Sequence record: NC_054920.1
Source of the DNA: Escherichia phage vB_EcoM_G9062
DNA: 64,000 nucleotides
Reading direction: 5' to 3' (one strand)
The first letter of the stretch is position 1. Each line of letters begins with the position of its first letter. The notes beneath the pieces were generated by a model. That model worked only from the letters and a program-made list of their open reading frames with translations. It searched no databases and was not told where the DNA came from. Shown piece by piece: positions 20,495-64,000 of the stretch. Both the position numbers and the translations under genes were made by a program.

Positions 20495-20525
20495 ACTATA
20501 CCATAGTCTTGTCAGCTTGTAAACT
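20495..20525 (-). promoter_or_regulatory. T4-type early promoter
   Basis: minus-strand GTTTACA (20525-20519), spacer, GTATAG. Confidence 0.5.
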
Positions 20526-21951
20526 AAAATTTTAATTCATTCGCCAAAGCATCTAACTGAGCTCGAGTGGATTCATTTCTTTGATAGCGATTCTGCTCAG
20601 CCTGAATCTGTTGTGAACCTACTACTTCATTCACTTCAGTTGGAGTAGAATCTTGATCAATTTCTACCCATTTTTGATTTCCTTTTTGAACACCCATCAA
20701 AAACTTATTCCATTTATTCTTATCACCATATCGTGATTTGATTTGCTTAATGAGTTGTTGTTCAGCAGCTGCTAGCTCCTCGGTTTCAATGACCGCAAGC
20801 ATAAAATCGGCTGTTGCTGGAAGACCAGCAGATTCTGCGATATCGCTCATGTTAACATCGGAAGAGTCCCAAGCTTGTTTGCCGACCTGCGCTGCAGTCC
20901 AAAGAACAGTTTCGGTTTCAACAGCAAGAGCACGTAATTCCTCAGCAATGGCTTTAACAGTTGTGTAACTATTTTCTGAGTAAACTCTAATGCGGCAAGA
21001 TTTACAAATACCCAGATAGTCGACAATAATGATTGTTGGAACAAAATTCTTCTTGAGCTTCAATTCGTTTAAAAGTGATCGAAATGTATTAGCGTCTGCT
21101 CCACCAGTAGGATACTGTTTAACGATTAAACGACCAAGAGTAGATTTCTCACGCCATTTTTCCATTTTTCCTTTATACTCAGCGTAAGAAATATGCCCAT
21201 CATCAATGTCATCAAGAGAAACATCAAGCATATTAGCATCAATACGCTTAGCACAGACTTCTTCTGCCATTTCCATGGAAATGTAAAGAACATTATGTCC
21301 GAGCTGCAAATAATCTGCTGCCAATGAACACAATCCTAATGACTTACCAACGTTAACGCCAGCCATTAAAACGTTCAGTGTTCCAGTCTCAGCTCCGCCT
21401 TTAGTAATTTTGTTCAGAATTCTGAGTTTAAATGGAACCTTACGAGCTTTATTCATATAAGATAGCCAACGTGCTTCATAGTCATCCATCCAATCATGGC
21501 CAACGTAGCTATCAAATGAAATTGATAATGCTTGGCGCATGATGTCAGGAATAGCACCTACATCTGGCATTTTCTTATTTCGTTTTTCTGGAGGAAGCTC
21601 AGCATTAGTTTGAATTTCGATTATTTTAGACGTAGCATTAAACATCGCCCTTTGCTGAACATATTTTTCTGTTTCTTTTATTAACCAACTGTGGTCTTCC
21701 GGAGAATCAGCTAGTTTTGAAATAAGTGTTTTTACACCAGAATATTCTGTTTCAGTAAATGAACTATTTTCTAATGCAACATTTAACGCATTAATAGATG
21801 GAACGCTATGATACTCATTGACATGAGATTTAATTAATTTGAATGTATTTTTAGCTGGACCACTTTCAAAATATTCTGAATCCATATATGGCCAAACTTT
21901 TGAAAAATAAGCTTGATCAAATATGAGATGAGAAAGAATAATTTCTACCAC
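20524..21951 (-). CDS. 41: replicative DNA helicase gp41, DnaB-like (475 aa)
   Basis: 475 aa; Walker A GVNVGKS. Confidence 0.9.
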   Translation of the reverse strand: MVEIILSHLIFDQAYFSKVWPYMDSEYFESGPAKNTFKLIKSHVNEYHSVPSINALNVALENSSFTETEYSGVKTLISKLADSPEDHSWLIKETEKYVQQRAMFNATSKIIEIQTNAELPPEKRNKKMPDVGAIPDIMRQALSISFDSYVGHDWMDDYEARWLSYMNKARKVPFKLRILNKITKGGAETGTLNVLMAGVNVGKSLGLCSLAADYLQLGHNVLYISMEMAEEVCAKRIDANMLDVSLDDIDDGHISYAEYKGKMEKWREKSTLGRLIVKQYPTGGADANTFRSLLNELKLKKNFVPTIIIVDYLGICKSCRIRVYSENSYTTVKAIAEELRALAVETETVLWTAAQVGKQAWDSSDVNMSDIAESAGLPATADFMLAVIETEELAAAEQQLIKQIKSRYGDKNKWNKFLMGVQKGNQKWVEIDQDSTPTEVNEVVGSQQIQAEQNRYQRNESTRAQLDALANELKF

Positions 21952-42160: not shown

Positions 42161-42631
42161 TTAATCATGTTTCCACACCCCATCGGTATTTGACCAAAGT
42201 CGCTGATTATCTGATCCTCGCCACAGCTTTTTAGTCGGAAGATTTTTCTCATACTTCCCATCAATAATAACATCAACATATTTAAGCATTTCTAGCTGTT
42301 TAATATCTTCAAACTTATATCCTGTCCACAACCAAATGCTTTTATTGGGATAAAGATTTTTAATAGTTTGAACCACAGAGTGAATCACGTCTCTGTTATC
42401 AGGATAAAGAGGGTCACCTCCGGTTATAGTTAATCCTTCTATATAATCATTATTCAAACATTCAATCAATTGTTCTAGCGTTTCACCAGTGAATGGAATA
42501 CCATTTCTAGCATTCCATGTTGATTTATTATAACACCCTTCACATTTATGCAAACAACCTGTAACGAAAAGAACGACCCTGCAACCAGGGCCATTCACAA
42601 AATCACAAGGATAAAATCTATCATAATTCAT
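42161..42631 (-). CDS. nrdG: anaerobic ribonucleotide reductase activase NrdG, radical SAM (156 aa)
   Basis: 156 aa; Cys-rich radical SAM region CDFVNGPGCRVVLFVTGCLHKCEGCYN. Confidence 0.9.
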   Translation of the reverse strand: MNYDRFYPCDFVNGPGCRVVLFVTGCLHKCEGCYNKSTWNARNGIPFTGETLEQLIECLNNDYIEGLTITGGDPLYPDNRDVIHSVVQTIKNLYPNKSIWLWTGYKFEDIKQLEMLKYVDVIIDGKYEKNLPTKKLWRGSDNQRLWSNTDGVWKHD

Positions 42632-44445
42632 TGATGCTTAACCCTATGCATGATTTCTTTATTTTTACCGAGATTAAATCCGCGTTCGTTCGGGTTTCCA
42701 AGATATCCGCATGTTCTTCTTATTGTGTTCATCTTTTTAGGATCAGTTTCTCCACAAATAGAACAAACAAATCCGTTTTCAGTAGGAGTCATTTCATGGG
42801 TACTTCCGCATGTAAAACACTTATCTACTGGCATGTTAACACCAAAATAATCTAAATGTTGTACAGCATAATCCCATACAGCCTCAAGACCTTTTAGGTT
42901 ATTTTTCATATCAGGAAGTTCAACATAAGAAATGTGACCACCTGTCGCAATGAAATGATATGGCGCTTCACGAGAAATTTTTTCAAACGGAGTAATATTT
43001 TCTTCTACTGAAACGTGGAAACTATTAGTGTACCAGCCTTTATCGGTAACATCTTTTACACTTCCATATTTTTCTGTATCAAGTTTACAGAAGCGATAAC
43101 AAAGGTTTTCAGCAGGAGTCGAATATAAACTAAAAGCAAATCCAGTTCTTTCAGTCCACTGTTTAAGATGAGCATTCATTTTAGTTAAAATTTCTTGTCC
43201 AATATCACGACCGACAAGAATATTCAATTCGTGAATACCAATGTATCCTAGGGACACTGAACTTCTGCCGTTTTTAAATAACTCAATTATGTCATCATCA
43301 GGTTTAAGACGAACCCCGAATGCACCTTCTTGGTAAAGAATAGGAGCTACAGTTGCTTTAACACCCTTTAAAGAACTAATTCTACGCATCAAGGCTTCAA
43401 AGCACAGATCCATTCGTTCATTAAATAGCTCAACAAATTTCTGTTCATTGAACTGTGTTCCAATATAAGAATCTAATGCGATACGAGGAAGATTCAGTGT
43501 TACAACACCGAGATTATTACGTCCATCAAGAATTTCATTACCAGTCGAATCTTTCCATACGCTCAAGAAACTACGGCAGCCCATCGGAGAAACAGGAATA
43601 GATGAACCAGTGATAGCTTTATTGTTCTTAGCTGAAATAATATCAGGATACATCCTTTTGCTTGCACACTCTAGAGCAAGCTGCTTAATATCATAGTTCG
43701 GATCGTCTTTATAAAGATTAACACCTTCTTCAACGAACATAACAAGCTTAGGGAAAATAGGAGTTATCCCATCACGACCGAGACCTTTAATACGATTTTT
43801 CAGAATTGCTTTCTGAATCATTCGTTCAGTCCAGTCAGTTCCCGTACCAAATGTAATTGTTACAAAAGGTGTTTGCCCGTTTGAACTAAAGAGAGTATTT
43901 ACTTCATATTCATAAGCTTGAAATGCATCGTATACGTCTTTTTCTGTTTTAGATTGAGCATAATTCAACGCATCGGCGATTTGCCATTTTTCTGCATCCT
44001 CAATATGTTTTGCATAGGTGCGTTTAACATAAGGAGAAAGTACTTTATCTACATTCGCAAAAGTCGTTCCGCCGTATTGGTGAGAAGCAACCTGTGCAGT
44101 AATTTGTGCCATAATTGCAGTAGCAACGCCAATTGATTTAGGAGTTTCAATCTGTGCATTACCAAGCTTAAATCCGTTCTCAAGCATTCCTTTTAAATCT
44201 ACTAAACAGCAATTAGTAAATGGAAGAGCAGGGGAATAATCAATATCATGGAAATGAATAATTCCGCTTTCATGCGCTTTCATAATAAAAGACGGGACCA
44301 TATTTTTGGCAATGTGTTTAGACACAATACCAGCCATAAGGTCCCGTTGAGTTGGAAAAACACGAGAATCTTTATTAGCATTCTCGTTTAAAAGGTCTTT
44401 ATTAGTTTTATGAATCAATCCTTCAATTTCTTTTTCAATTGTCAT
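42628..44445 (-). CDS. nrdD: anaerobic ribonucleoside-triphosphate reductase NrdD (605 aa), uninterrupted
   Basis: 605 aa; C-terminal zinc ribbon CFTCGS...CSICG and glycyl-radical motif RRTCGYLG; ATGA overlap with nrdG. Confidence 0.95.
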   Translation of the reverse strand: MTIEKEIEGLIHKTNKDLLNENANKDSRVFPTQRDLMAGIVSKHIAKNMVPSFIMKAHESGIIHFHDIDYSPALPFTNCCLVDLKGMLENGFKLGNAQIETPKSIGVATAIMAQITAQVASHQYGGTTFANVDKVLSPYVKRTYAKHIEDAEKWQIADALNYAQSKTEKDVYDAFQAYEYEVNTLFSSNGQTPFVTITFGTGTDWTERMIQKAILKNRIKGLGRDGITPIFPKLVMFVEEGVNLYKDDPNYDIKQLALECASKRMYPDIISAKNNKAITGSSIPVSPMGCRSFLSVWKDSTGNEILDGRNNLGVVTLNLPRIALDSYIGTQFNEQKFVELFNERMDLCFEALMRRISSLKGVKATVAPILYQEGAFGVRLKPDDDIIELFKNGRSSVSLGYIGIHELNILVGRDIGQEILTKMNAHLKQWTERTGFAFSLYSTPAENLCYRFCKLDTEKYGSVKDVTDKGWYTNSFHVSVEENITPFEKISREAPYHFIATGGHISYVELPDMKNNLKGLEAVWDYAVQHLDYFGVNMPVDKCFTCGSTHEMTPTENGFVCSICGETDPKKMNTIRRTCGYLGNPNERGFNLGKNKEIMHRVKHQ

Positions 44446-61187: not shown

Positions 61188-61649
61188 TCATTGAGTTTTA
61201 ATTACTGCTTTAGAAGCCTTTCCTGGTAAACGACGACTGTTGATAATTGCCATCCTGCATTGAAGTGACGGGTTTTTGAACTTCTCATTAGGCTTACAAA
61301 CCGTAAATCCAAGCCAAAGATTTCCATCTGTGATTTCTAAACGTCCAGGACGATATTCAACCCCATCAATAAAATCCTCGTCAATGTCAGGACGCGGAGG
61401 CATACTCAGGAATTCATTAACTTCTAAAACATGGTCTTTTATTTTATGGAATAATTCAAAAACATATGTCTCATCAATCTCCCGTTGAATTGCACGATCA
61501 AGAAGATGTTGAGAATATTTTAGATGAAACGATGAGACTCCTGCTGCTTTTGATGCCTCACGAATCTCATTGTTAATTTGACGAAACTCCGACTCAAAAT
61601 GACGACGAAGCTTATTTCTACGGATAAAAACTTCTGTATTGATAGTCAT
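61188..61649 (-). CDS. regB: endoribonuclease RegB (153 aa)
   Basis: 153 aa; position between tk region and denV. Confidence 0.85.
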   Translation of the reverse strand: MTINTEVFIRRNKLRRHFESEFRQINNEIREASKAAGVSSFHLKYSQHLLDRAIQREIDETYVFELFHKIKDHVLEVNEFLSMPPRPDIDEDFIDGVEYRPGRLEITDGNLWLGFTVCKPNEKFKNPSLQCRMAIINSRRLPGKASKAVIKTQ

Positions 61650-61673
61650 GTTATTCTCCTCTTAACTGATAGA

Positions 61674-61705
61674 AAAATTATACCACAGTCAAGAGGAAAA
61701 GTAAA
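61674..61705 (-). promoter_or_regulatory. T4-type early promoter
   Basis: minus-strand GTTTAC (61705-61700), spacer, GGTATAAT. Confidence 0.5.
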
Positions 61706-61708
61706 CAG

Positions 61709-62029
61709 TTATTCTTTAAATCTAATCAATTTATTCATAGACTTTGTAACTTCTGCACGAACCTCATGTAAGTTTTTAAGCTGTTCAAGACTTTGCTCAT
61801 AGTAAGCAATTTCATCTTCTTCGAGGCAGTCCTGTGAATCTTCTTTAAGATAACGTGCATAGTCCTGGAAAGCTTTACGGACTACTTCCTGGAAGTCATC
61901 AAGACTTTGAATTTTCTTAGGAGCAACAGATACACGACGAGGGGCAGTATAATACTCATAACCAAACCCTGCGCTTAATTGAGCCATTAGTATTTTTCCT
62001 CTGGTTGGAACACTGCGCGACAAGCCCAC
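61709..62029 (-). CDS. hypothetical protein (106 aa)
   Basis: minus-strand ORF. Confidence 0.45.
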
Positions 62030-62253
62030 ATACTGGCTTCTTTGAGTTTCATTTTAGCAATAGTTAACTGATCGAGGCTTTCGGCGTAATTCTTCGCGAG
62101 TTCATCATCTTCACAGCTATCAAATGCTTCCCAGAATTCATCATATAAAGCATCAAAGATAAGCCCTAAACGAACTTCAGCATCTTTGATAGCATTCACT
62201 TTACTGATTTTATCGTCAGTATGTGGTTTATAACCTTTAATGTCTTCAATCAT
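61987..62253 (-). CDS. hypothetical protein (88 aa)
   Basis: minus-strand ORF. Confidence 0.45.
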
Positions 62254-62467
62254 ATTTTACTTCCTCACCTGTTCCCAAATCATATTCAACTAAACGAATA
62301 GGTTCATGAATGCCATATCCTTGAACAGAAATTTCTGTCGTAGGATAAATTCCATTAATATCACCCATGTTCCATGCTTCGTTAAATTGCTGTTCGCCTG
62401 AATTACTAAACCACTCGGCGAAAGCATTTAGCACATCTTCAGAACCTTCAATAATTATCTTTGCCAT
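62246..62467 (-). CDS. hypothetical protein (73 aa)
   Basis: minus-strand ORF, coupled to downstream gene. Confidence 0.45.
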   Translation of the reverse strand: MAKIIIEGSEDVLNAFAEWFSNSGEQQFNEAWNMGDINGIYPTTEISVQGYGIHEPIRLVEYDLGTGEEVKYD

Positions 62468-62829
62468 TACAAACTCTCGGTGAAGGTACGAGCGATAACG
62501 TCGCGCTGCTGTTCCGGAGTCAGAGAGTTAAAGCGAACTGCATAACCGGATACACGGATGGTCAGCTGCGGATATTTTTCCGGATGCTTAACTGCATCTT
62601 CCAGAGTTTCACGACGCAGAACGTTAACGTTCAGGTGTTGACCACCTTCAATTTTAACTGTAGGCTGTTGCTCAATTTCAATTTCACGGGCATGCAAACC
62701 ATAGAAAATTTCTGGGTCTACAAAAGAGTCCTCTTTAAAGGTTTTAGAGACAATAATTCGTGCTTGAATACCATCTTCAAAATAAATAGTACCTTTATGT
62801 GTGCCTTCAAGAATTTGATATGCTTTCAT
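62467..62829 (-). CDS. autonomous glycyl-radical cofactor, GrcA/YfiD-like (120 aa)
   Basis: C-terminal 60 aa [61 protein letters not shown] matches E. coli GrcA as I recall it; that half is visibly GC-rich. Confidence 0.8.
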
Positions 62830-62835
62830 ATAACC

Positions 62836-63216
62836 TCAATTAGAAAATAAATTTATCCAAGATTGTTCTTTAATTAAAAATGGCTCAGAATCATATGCCA
62901 TTAAACTCTGTGTGATTAGTCCTTTAAAAGGCCCATCAATAAATTCCATGGTAAAATATGGAATTTTATTCATTAGCCGTGCATTAGGAGCCGTGCACAA
63001 AACTCTGCATCCTTTGAATACGCCTTTTTGTAATTTGTATTGCTTGGGATAAAATTCGCTCAAAATGTTATTTTTTGCCAAAATTTCAAAATGATTCACC
63101 AATTTATTTTTAATAGTTTTTGGCGAAAAATAAAGATATTCGAAAAGCTGAGTGTCTGTCATCATTGCATTCCGATTACGAAAAACTGTGGACGAGTAAT
63201 ACCACCAATGCAACAT
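62836..63216 (-). CDS. hypothetical protein (126 aa)
   Basis: minus-strand ORF. Confidence 0.45.
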   Translation of the reverse strand: MLHWWYYSSTVFRNRNAMMTDTQLFEYLYFSPKTIKNKLVNHFEILAKNNILSEFYPKQYKLQKGVFKGCRVLCTAPNARLMNKIPYFTMEFIDGPFKGLITQSLMAYDSEPFLIKEQSWINLFSN

Positions 63217-63749
63217 TTAATATTACAGCAGCAGTGTACAGTGTCAATATGGACACTATAAATCTTATCCATATCAGGAGATTTGACAGGCTCATCAATT
63301 ATATACAAAATTCGCGAAAGCGATAAACCTCTGAACTTGCTTCCTTTATTACCAATAAAACTGCGCACAGAATCAGTAAATAAACGAAAACGTATATCAT
63401 CATTAGAATAACGCGAAAATTCCTTTTTAATATTATCTGCGGAAATTTTAGCGTAAGCTGAAGTATTAGAAAGAACAATAACTGTTCCACCGTCATACAA
63501 CCAATTAGCGGCAAAATTAGTTACTGCAGTTGATTTACCAGATTGACGCCCACCATCTAGTCGAAGTGTACAATACTGTTTAAGTAAGTCTTCAAATGGC
63601 GGGATATATTCGTTTTTACAAATTTCTTCTACTCTAGCATCAGAATGGTGTGTAAAAGCATTCATCAGGGATAGATAAGGACCAGTTAAAAATGTTCTCA
63701 TTTTGTTCTCTCTAGGTTTGGGCCATTCCATGGCGCATGAATTGTCCAT
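63162..63749 (-). CDS. hypothetical P-loop-like protein (195 aa or shorter)
   Basis: GGRQSGKST motif; alternative start MRTFLTGPY at about 63701. Confidence 0.45.
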   Translation of the reverse strand: MDNSCAMEWPKPRENKMRTFLTGPYLSLMNAFTHHSDARVEEICKNEYIPPFEDLLKQYCTLRLDGGRQSGKSTAVTNFAANWLYDGGTVIVLSNTSAYAKISADNIKKEFSRYSNDDIRFRLFTDSVRSFIGNKGSKFRGLSLSRILYIIDEPVKSPDMDKIYSVHIDTVHCCCNIKCCIGGITRPQFFVIGMQ

Positions 63750-63846
63750 TTCTGTATTTACCCATTACCGCACTTGGGCTCGACCTTATTACAGGTTGGC
63801 GGGAATCCCTCACAGAATCATGAGGTCCAGGTTATTCCCATGTTAT

Positions 63847-64000
63847 TTAAATGTAAATATTTTTGCCGTAATACTTATACCAGTGTGGCTTCATTAAAAT
63901 TTTTTCATCGAGTCGTTGTTGACTCAACTTAATAGCTGATTTGCATGGATTATAATCATTTTTCCATTCTACTGGAATATCGCTGATGTCAGGAACTTCA
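63847..64000 (-). CDS. denV: endonuclease V (pyrimidine-dimer glycosylase), C-terminal 51 codons only
   Basis: my translation ...[44 protein letters not shown]; 5' part lies beyond the window. Confidence 0.8.

Follow-up and report, generated by a model that had tools for sequence, protein, structure and literature searches.

An Escherichia coli grcA tract in the 3′ half of vs.6 points to host-templated gene conversion in T4-type phages

Escherichia phage vB_EcoM_G9062 is a T4-like phage of the genus Tequatrovirus, and a 64,000-nt stretch of its genome (NC_054920.1; hereafter the window) carries on the minus strand, at 62467..62829, an ATG-to-TAA open reading frame (ORF) of 120 codons plus a TAA stop, which encodes a phage autonomous glycyl-radical cofactor homologous to the bacterial protein GrcA (YfiD). 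As judged from its sequence, this ORF is the orthologue of T4 vs.6, whose product is called Y06I in the biochemical literature; gene and function alike have been described before, and the gene itself adds nothing new. What remains of interest is that gene conversion templated by the host seems to recur in these virulent phages. It is very likely that the ORF is a vs.6/Y06I orthologue repairing oxygen-cleaved pyruvate formate-lyase (PFL), and that its 3′ half was converted to host sequence from E. coli grcA. With somewhat less assurance, it also appears probable that the radical domain has been repeatedly re-copied from the current host: from E. coli grcA in Tequatrovirus and Mosigvirus, from K. 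pneumoniae grcA in Jiaodavirus, and as a Haemophilus-type patch in an uncultivated phage. This would amount to ongoing host-templated gene conversion in strictly lytic T4-type phages.

Host identity and composition of the 3′ half

Nucleotides 179-363 of the gene (62467..62651, minus strand) correspond to the 3′ 185 nt of E. coli grcA and encode the structured glycyl-radical domain. Over this tract, 180 of the 185 positions (97.3%) are identical to grcA, and this holds in 5,426 of 5,426 complete E. coli genomes. In its core, nucleotides 179-347 (62483..62651, minus strand), the gene agrees with E. coli grcA without interruption, at 169 of 169 bases. Of the 5,432 E. coli records that match this core, 5,156 do so with an identity of 99% or more, and the identity is 100% in the first four of the eight entries that list the spread. 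The remainder of the gene is of a different character. Nucleotides 1-178 (62652..62829, minus strand; residues 1-59) are AT-rich and phage-type, with a nucleotide identity to grcA of approximately 45% and a remote likeness to the N-terminus of host GrcA.

The two parts also differ in composition. The GC content of the tract is 0.492, compared to 0.337 for the 5′ part and 0.343 for the window (z = 3.77), and 0.06% of all 185-nt segments are as GC-rich. GC content at third codon positions (GC3) is 0.47 in the tract against a phage mean of 0.24 (z = 3.6), while the fit of its synonymous codons to phage usage gives z = -3.7, with host choices such as CTG and CCG being kept. In total, 55 of 60 codons are equal to those of E. 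coli, where 24.9 would be expected under phage codon usage, and the probability of all 60 codons matching under that usage is 1e-30. By GC, GC3 and codon usage alike, a segment of host-like composition therefore lies inside a gene of phage composition, as in a psbA-type mosaic. The sole other equally GC-rich 185-nt stretch of the window, at 20749-20955, was considered as a second host tract and rejected: it lies inside a gp41-like replicative helicase ORF (475 aa, 20524-21951, minus strand), and nothing matching it was found in E. coli DNA.

The DNA identity could in principle simply reflect conservation of the protein, and it is here that other phages are instructive. The window gene has no synonymous differences from E. 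coli grcA in 56 codons. In contrast, Citrobacter phage Margaery, in which the 63 C-terminal residues are the same bar one, has 27 synonymous codon differences from E. coli grcA and an overall nucleotide identity of 160/192, and nowhere do more than 17 consecutive nt agree. In seven further phage lineages whose protein is nearly the same, 24-34 synonymous codon differences are likewise seen. Protein conservation therefore cannot account for the identity of the tract at the DNA level, and the 3′ half of vs.6 is best read as recently host-derived DNA. An initial annotation of this sequence had proposed just such a recent capture, on the strength of a GC-rich 3′ half in an otherwise AT-rich genome, and had named a nucleotide alignment to grcA and a formal GC and codon-usage analysis as the means of checking it. 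The shift in composition is borne out by the z values given above, the 169/169 core places the identity far above the level set by protein conservation, and neither of the outcomes that would have told against capture (identity no higher than the protein predicts, or no GC shift) was obtained.

Donor and direction of transfer

For identification of the donor, grcA from 81 other bacterial species and from E. coli was compared with the phage gene over 192 nt. E. coli is the closest (183/192), followed by Escherichia sp. (181), whereas the maximum for any other genus is 169, reached by Citrobacter and Trabulsiella. By this comparison the donor is specifically E. coli grcA. The gene for PFL itself, pflB, was also tried as donor and rejected, being only approximately 80% identical to the tract.

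The direction of transfer can likewise be assigned, as the segment is closer to the host allele than to those of other bacteria or phages. E. coli grcA differs from the genes of other enterobacteria in both of its halves, and the GC contents of those halves are similar (0.47 and 0.49). This argues that grcA has been inherited vertically in bacteria and, therefore, that the transfer proceeded from host to phage.

The N-terminal half and the origin of the tract

A host-derived 3′ half may be placed in a phage gene in more than one way. The initial annotation regarded the gene as a chimera whose N-terminal half is unrelated to GrcA, and such a domain fusion, in which illegitimate recombination joined a fragment of host grcA to unrelated phage sequence, would have created a new protein. 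It draws some support from the very sharp 5′ junction, at which nucleotide identity changes from approximately 45% upstream to 100% downstream, and from the fact that the likeness of the N-terminal half to GrcA is weak by eye.

However, the N-terminal half turns out not to be unrelated. When N-terminal halves alone were compared with GrcA by BLASTP, 35% identity was found over 40 aa (E 5e-6), and a profile-profile comparison with hhalign, of nine phage N-termini against twelve bacterial GrcA N-termini, aligned 63 columns with a probability of 93.6% and an E value of 2.1e-7. The region is thus homologous by sequence, over its whole length, to residues 1-60 of GrcA, and the whole protein is a GrcA homologue with a diverged N-terminus. 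The phage-type N-terminal motif is, moreover, conserved across many phage families, being common to Tequatrovirus, Mosigvirus, Jiaodavirus, Slopekvirus, Krischvirus and a Salmonella jumbo phage.

Further evidence comes from lineages that lack the host tract. In Margaery, phiKp_19, GEC-3S, T5-like phages, SE_PL and Aswh_1, the protein is built of the same two parts, and the 3′ half of the gene follows the codon usage of phages. Since the full two-part protein exists in these phages, a complete, diverged GrcA homologue must predate the tract. The sharpness of the 5′ junction does not require a fusion either. The junction lies where nucleotide similarity between phage and host begins (GAAGGTGGTCAACACCTGAA...), at the start of a stretch that is conserved even in distant phages and that forms a 19-nt identical run in Aeromonas phage Aswh_1; a homologous crossover at such a conserved stretch would leave no trace. 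In approximately 637 phage records the tract starts at the same position of grcA, nt 200 (GrcA codon 67); its span fits the structured domain almost exactly, and the 5′ half of host grcA was found in 0 phage records.

A fusion therefore appears improbable, and the event is better described as gene conversion of a pre-existing phage grcA homologue, its 3′ half having been replaced, as the alignments indicate, by homologous recombination. The starting state was a long-held, full-length, AT-rich phage GrcA homologue. In Tequatrovirus and Mosigvirus, approximately 185 nt at its 3′ end were then overwritten by homologous recombination with chromosomal grcA of E. coli, the phage retaining its own version of the PFL-binding region. 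In Klebsiella phages, the same process occurred independently with K. pneumoniae grcA as the template.

Function and the question of NrdD

The only domain found in the protein is the Pfam Gly_radical domain (PF01228; 67 bits against a cut-off of 22.2), at residues 60-101. Residues 61-120 are identical to residues 68-127 of E. coli GrcA at 60 of 60 positions, the RVSGYAV motif at residues 92-98 included, so that the near-exact match put forward in the initial annotation is in fact exact. The predicted radical glycine in this motif, Gly95 (codon at 62545..62547, minus strand), is equivalent to G102 of GrcA and G734 of PFL, and it is invariant across all 26 aligned phage and bacterial homologues, in all of which the C-terminal protein sequence is extremely conserved. 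Among solved structures, E. coli GrcA (6OWR) is matched best, at E 9e-42, and the C-terminus of PFL comes next: residues 58-120 align to PFL 697-759 (E 5e-26), and the domain is approximately 78% identical to the PFL C-terminus. The protein also has the form expected of the GrcA/YfiD/Y06I family, being small (approximately 14 kDa), stand-alone, and composed of a glycyl-radical domain and a short N-terminal region. By most defining features, the window protein is a member of the GrcA family. GrcA-like genes occur in 1,587 phage records, T5-like and Aeromonas phages included. A single-sequence AlphaFold2 model of the protein was unusable (mean pLDDT 34.8).

Oxygen cleaves PFL at G734 (PMC8683613). 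According to the account of Wagner et al. 2001 in the same source, T4 Y06I, like E. coli YfiD, restores oxygen-cleaved PFL once PFL-AE, the PFL activase, installs a glycyl radical on the bound small protein. Residues 61-127 of YfiD duplicate the fold of PFL 693-759, while its disordered residues 1-60 aid binding of the cleaved PFL and raise activation about fourfold (PMC8683613). The phage 5′ part, encoding residues 1-59, corresponds to this disordered region.

The window protein is 98.3% identical to T4 Y06I (118/120 residues, the T4 differences being only Q54P and R73H), and its radical domain is identical to that of GrcA; it can therefore be inferred to act as Y06I does. Oxygen would cleave host PFL at its radical glycine, G734, and the small phage protein would bind the cleaved enzyme, its C-terminal domain replacing the C-terminus that PFL has lost. 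Once host PFL-AE had placed a new radical on G95 of this protein, PFL would be active again. The benefit to the phage may be that production of acetyl-CoA, ATP and formate continues in a micro-aerobic infected cell. The formate might be of particular value, as the survival of PFL could feed the phage's anaerobic ribonucleotide reductase, NrdD, and hence anaerobic synthesis of deoxynucleoside triphosphates (dNTPs). Formate is said, in the work of Mulliez and colleagues from 1995, to be the reductant of the formate-type class III ribonucleotide reductases.

NrdD also raises the possibility that the protein is a spare part, additionally or instead, for the phage's own reductase rather than for host PFL. 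NrdD, too, is cleaved by oxygen at its radical glycine. In Salmonella jumbo phage SE_PL, a grcA-like gene (L008:595-957) is flanked by nrdD and nrdG, and another (L011:454-813) adjoins nrdG and nrdC in Aeromonas phage Aswh_1. A comparative paper from 2006 also speculated on a role in nucleotide metabolism (PMC1524935).

The window phage encodes NrdD at 42628..44445 (minus strand; 605 aa; Pfam NRDD at 569 bits, with a Gly_radical domain; C-terminus ...CGETDPKKMNTIRRTCGYLGN...), and the comparison with vs.6 is unfavourable to such a role. No significant similarity between vs.6 and this NrdD was found by BLASTP (E = 4), and the radical loop of NrdD, RRTCGYLG, which follows a Zn-ribbon, is unlike RVSGYAV. 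The C-terminal domain of vs.6 accordingly does not duplicate the radical domain of NrdD; rather, it is 100% GrcA and close to the C-terminus of PFL, and PFL rescue is the activity that PMC8683613 ascribes to Y06I. The gene neighbourhoods are equally explained by PFL supplying formate to a class III ribonucleotide reductase. A spare part for NrdD is therefore an unlikely role. Of the two targets that the initial annotation had offered for the repair role, PFL agrees with the reported activity of T4 Y06I, while the phage NrdD does not hold. The arrangements in SE_PL and Aswh_1 instead suggest that PFL repair is linked to anaerobic dNTP synthesis, possibly via formate, and a metabolic link is preferred to a structural one.

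Age and recurrence of the tract

An estimate of the age of the tract is provided by RB69, to which the genes flanking vs.6 in the window phage are 76% (vs.7) and 72.5% (vs.5) identical. Within vs.6, 18 of 177 nt differ between the two phages in the 5′ part, but only 2 of 165 in the tract (Fisher p = 3e-4). The tract must therefore be much younger than the split of these genera. Either each genus acquired it on its own, or it moved from one to the other. Mosigvirus tracts contain a few extra third-position changes, almost all of them GC-to-AT, a pattern that fits amelioration towards phage composition.

These observations also bear on a further explanation, namely that the whole of host grcA was captured once, in the distant past, after which the disordered, weakly constrained N-terminal half diverged fast and the C-terminal half was frozen by purifying selection. 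The extreme conservation of the C-terminal protein sequence in all homologues is as this would predict. Yet purifying selection on a protein does not hold its synonymous sites fixed, and the 0 differences in 56 codons found here stand against 24-34 elsewhere. The tract also retains host GC3 and the host codons CTG and CCG, and it is far younger than the phage DNA that flanks it. Some constraint at the nucleotide level, such as an RNA structure common to host and phage, would be needed, and none is indicated; a single ancient capture is thus very improbable. Least credible of all is an artefact of host DNA contamination or chimeric assembly, for which the only argument is how unusual a perfect match to host DNA is: approximately 637 phage records, sequenced independently and including the reference genomes of T4 and RB69, show this junction, the reading frame is intact, and the T4 protein has been purified and studied, as PMC8683613 describes.

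Recent conversion from the host is further supported by phages of a different host. There are 23 sites that separate E. coli grcA from K. pneumoniae grcA. E. coli phages carry the E. coli allele at 22 of the 23, while the Klebsiella phages KP182 and Wolf_ER13 carry the K. pneumoniae allele at 16-17 of them. In Klebsiella phage KPV15 (KY000080.1) there is one difference from K. pneumoniae grcA in approximately 157 nt, and 106 phage records are 95-99% identical to the 3′ half of K. pneumoniae grcA; the K. pneumoniae-type tracts of Klebsiella phages reach an identity of 98%. The E. coli-type and Klebsiella-type tracts are clearly independent events. As a control, Salmonella and Enterobacter grcA were compared with all phages, and no tract above 90% identity was found except in one record at 90-95%. 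Nor was any host tract found in the homologues from T5-like, Krischvirus, Slopekvirus, Margaery, jumbo and Aeromonas phages, in which the longest identical runs are approximately 35 nt or less.

Two further observations concern the Klebsiella phages. The vs.6 homologue of KPV15 has, relative to that of KP182, a 1-nt deletion at gene nt 123, which breaks the frame after 49 codons, although RefSeq still annotates it as GrcA; this is either a sequencing error or a pseudogene. The sibling Jiaodaviruses KP182 and Wolf_ER13 differ from each other at 2 of 177 nt in the 5′ part and at 10 of 165 in the tract (nt 180-345), all synonymous, whereas in E. coli phages it is the tract that differs less. Different Klebsiella alleles may thus have served as templates for separate, or partial, conversions.

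A weaker case is found in an uncultivated contig (IMGVR_UViG_3300008607_000007, labelled L123), in which a 393-nt grcA-like gene at 201-593 contains a Haemophilus-type patch of approximately 70 nt. It matches Haemophilus grcA at 10 of the 10 sites at which it differs from its sibling L121, and its longest identical run is 56 nt, compared to 23-29 nt in its siblings. This patch is a probable third independent host-conversion event. Among other short IMG/VR contigs classed as viral, L171-L182 carry pflB C-termini of bacterial composition (GC approximately 0.52) and L127 carries a full bacterial-type, Yersinia-like grcA; in all likelihood these contigs come from the flanks of prophages or are bacterial fragments that were misclassified.

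The 3′ boundary of the tract

While the 5′ junction is uniform, the 3′ junction lies within the last approximately 21 nt of the gene and is variable among sibling phages. In the window phage, the last 16 nt (62467..62482, minus strand) contain five phage-type synonymous sites, reading TTc ACc GAg AGt tTG, where the final codons of the host are ACC TTT ACT GAA AGC CTG. Among Tequatroviruses at least 176/180 identical in the 5′ part (169-177/177 for IMG/VR loci), the number of phage-type differences in these final codons is 1 in OES_C-2, 2 in fFiEco06 and T4, 4 in ECML-134, 5 in the window phage, 6 in MLF4 and 7 in AREG1. The phage-type alleles at the 3′ end are also present in Klebsiella and Citrobacter phages, and they therefore represent the ancestral phage state. 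In this small sample, the variable endpoints in E. coli phages fit either repeated conversion by the host or later recombination between phages.

The boundary reaches into the region where translation of vs.5, the next gene downstream, is initiated. The phage-type G of GAg AGt creates the sequence GAGAG at 62474-62478, six nt upstream of the vs.5 ATG, and this G is kept in every phage examined except T4; in OES_C-2, it is the sole difference from the host. Selection on the translation of vs.5 may thus hold the extreme 3′ end of vs.6 in its phage state, with GAGAG as the putative Shine-Dalgarno sequence.

Gene neighbourhood and annotation

Over a 701-nt segment around the gene, identity is 100% to ACG-C40, Sf21, DalCa and other phages, and matches to this segment occur in 792 phage records. 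In ACG-C40, the gene is likewise 100% identical and is annotated as 'autonomous glycyl radical cofactor GrcA; similar to T4 Vs.6', and the gene order is vs.8-vs.7-vs.6-vs.5-vs.4-vs.3-regB. The initial annotation had placed the ORF exactly, but it missed that the gene is the known T4 vs.6/Y06I.

When the ACG-C40 annotation is mapped to the window, the upstream gene in the same tightly packed string is vs.7 (62836..63165, minus strand; unknown function, PHROG 2049), and the downstream gene is vs.5 (62246..62467, minus strand; 73 aa, unknown function, PHROG 1986), the ATG of which overlaps the vs.6 stop codon (TAATG). The length of vs.5 is 177 nt in T4, compared to 222 nt in the window phage and most relatives. 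A putative Shine-Dalgarno-like GAGG for vs.6 itself can be recognized in the sequence 4 nt upstream of its ATG (62834..62837, minus strand), overlapping the stop codon of vs.7. A promoter-like site, TTGACA-16 nt-TAATAT, is present at 63220-63247 (minus strand), just 5′ of the start of the longest vs.7 ORF, and is offered only as a lead to where transcription of the vs.7-vs.6-vs.5 string may start. A scan of 61600-64000 for promoters and terminators was uninformative and did no better than on shuffled sequence: 10 promoter-like sites were found where 8.2 would be expected, and 2 terminator-like sites where 1.5 would be.

The labels given to the gene in GenBank are inconsistent, and include 'hypothetical protein', 'pyruvate formate-lyase', '2-ketobutyrate formate-lyase' and, in ZCEC14, 'HNH homing endonuclease'. 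PHROG 1209, the family to which vs.6 belongs, is listed as being of unknown function.

Discussion

The closest known system is T4 vs.6 itself, which occupies the same position between vs.7 and vs.5 and has the same host-identical 3′ tract (for Y06I: Wagner et al. 2001, BBRC 285:456, as cited in PMC8683613 and PMC13450708). The window phage is nonetheless a different Tequatrovirus. Its tract ends approximately 9 nt earlier at the 3′ side than that of T4, and as its protein lacks the R73H difference of T4, its radical domain departs from the host sequence at no residue. E. coli GrcA/YfiD (6OWR; TIGR04365; IPR011140) is likewise a stand-alone protein of approximately 14 kDa, with an identical C-terminal 60 aa and a homologous N-terminal region, and the activase (PFL-AE) and target (oxygen-cleaved PFL) reported for it are, in the account of T4 Y06I available in PMC8683613, the same as those of the phage protein. 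The phage protein differs in being 7 residues shorter, in its N-terminal 59 residues (approximately 35% identical over 40 aa) and in the phage codon usage of its 5′ half. The C-terminal glycyl-radical domain of PflB (1H16, 693-759) is the part of PFL that the spare-part protein replaces, but the DNA donor of the tract is grcA and not pflB.

In mode of evolution, the nearest parallel is provided by the cyanophage photosynthesis genes psbA and psbD, in which intragenic recombination between host and phage has produced a patchy %G+C (Sullivan et al. 2006, PMC1484495). In both cases a host-like metabolic gene in T4-like phages has exchanged segments with the host copy, and phage sequences cluster by host. 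Such intragenic recombination in psbA and psbD was reportedly also described by Zeidner and colleagues in 2005. Unlike psbA and psbD, vs.6 encodes a glycyl-radical repair factor and belongs to enterobacterial phages, with E. coli and Klebsiella as hosts instead of marine cyanobacteria. Its tract also differs in being a single block that covers one structural domain and is essentially identical, at 169/169 nt, to the present-day host allele. Given the Klebsiella-type tracts, the Haemophilus-type patch and the variable 3′ boundary, host-templated conversion of vs.6 looks recurrent, in the manner of cyanophage psbA. A stronger version would regard it as adaptive 'host tracking', by which the domain is kept matched to the PFL and PFL-AE of the host.

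Several points weigh against the interpretation favoured here. The protein scores below the cut-off of the NCBIfam GrcA equivalog model TIGR04365 (spare_glycyl; 154.9 bits against 170, where E. coli GrcA reaches 233.9), a shortfall that arises because the N-terminus has diverged and only residues 20-120 align. The function rests on literature for T4 Y06I, as described in PMC8683613. The formate-for-NrdD rationale is drawn from gene neighbourhood in two distant phages and general knowledge of class III ribonucleotide reductases. With regard to recurrence, the tract in Tequatrovirus and Mosigvirus (approximately 20 sequences) fits either independent conversions or one conversion that spread from phage to phage. 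Furthermore, T4-type phages degrade cytosine-containing host DNA, so that recombination between host and phage should be rare.

No account of host-derived DNA in vs.6/yfiD/Y06I was found in the literature searched, which excluded Wagner 2001, the Miller 2003 review of T4 and Bowman 2019, and novelty cannot be asserted. To our knowledge, T4-type phages are usually described as lacking DNA homology to their host, and Y06I is one of just two spare-part proteins to have been biochemically validated. A characterised gene is, at the same time, mislabelled in many records, which is a problem of annotation. The perfect identity of 169 nt to the host in a virulent T4-type phage, together with the independent Klebsiella-type block, makes vs.6 a clean case of gene conversion from host to phage, one that is open to experiment and concerns the phage-host pair that has been studied best. 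Such a case might serve to gauge how frequently lytic phages recombine with chromosomal genes of the host, and to ask whether recombination, rather than point mutation, keeps auxiliary metabolic genes matched to the host.

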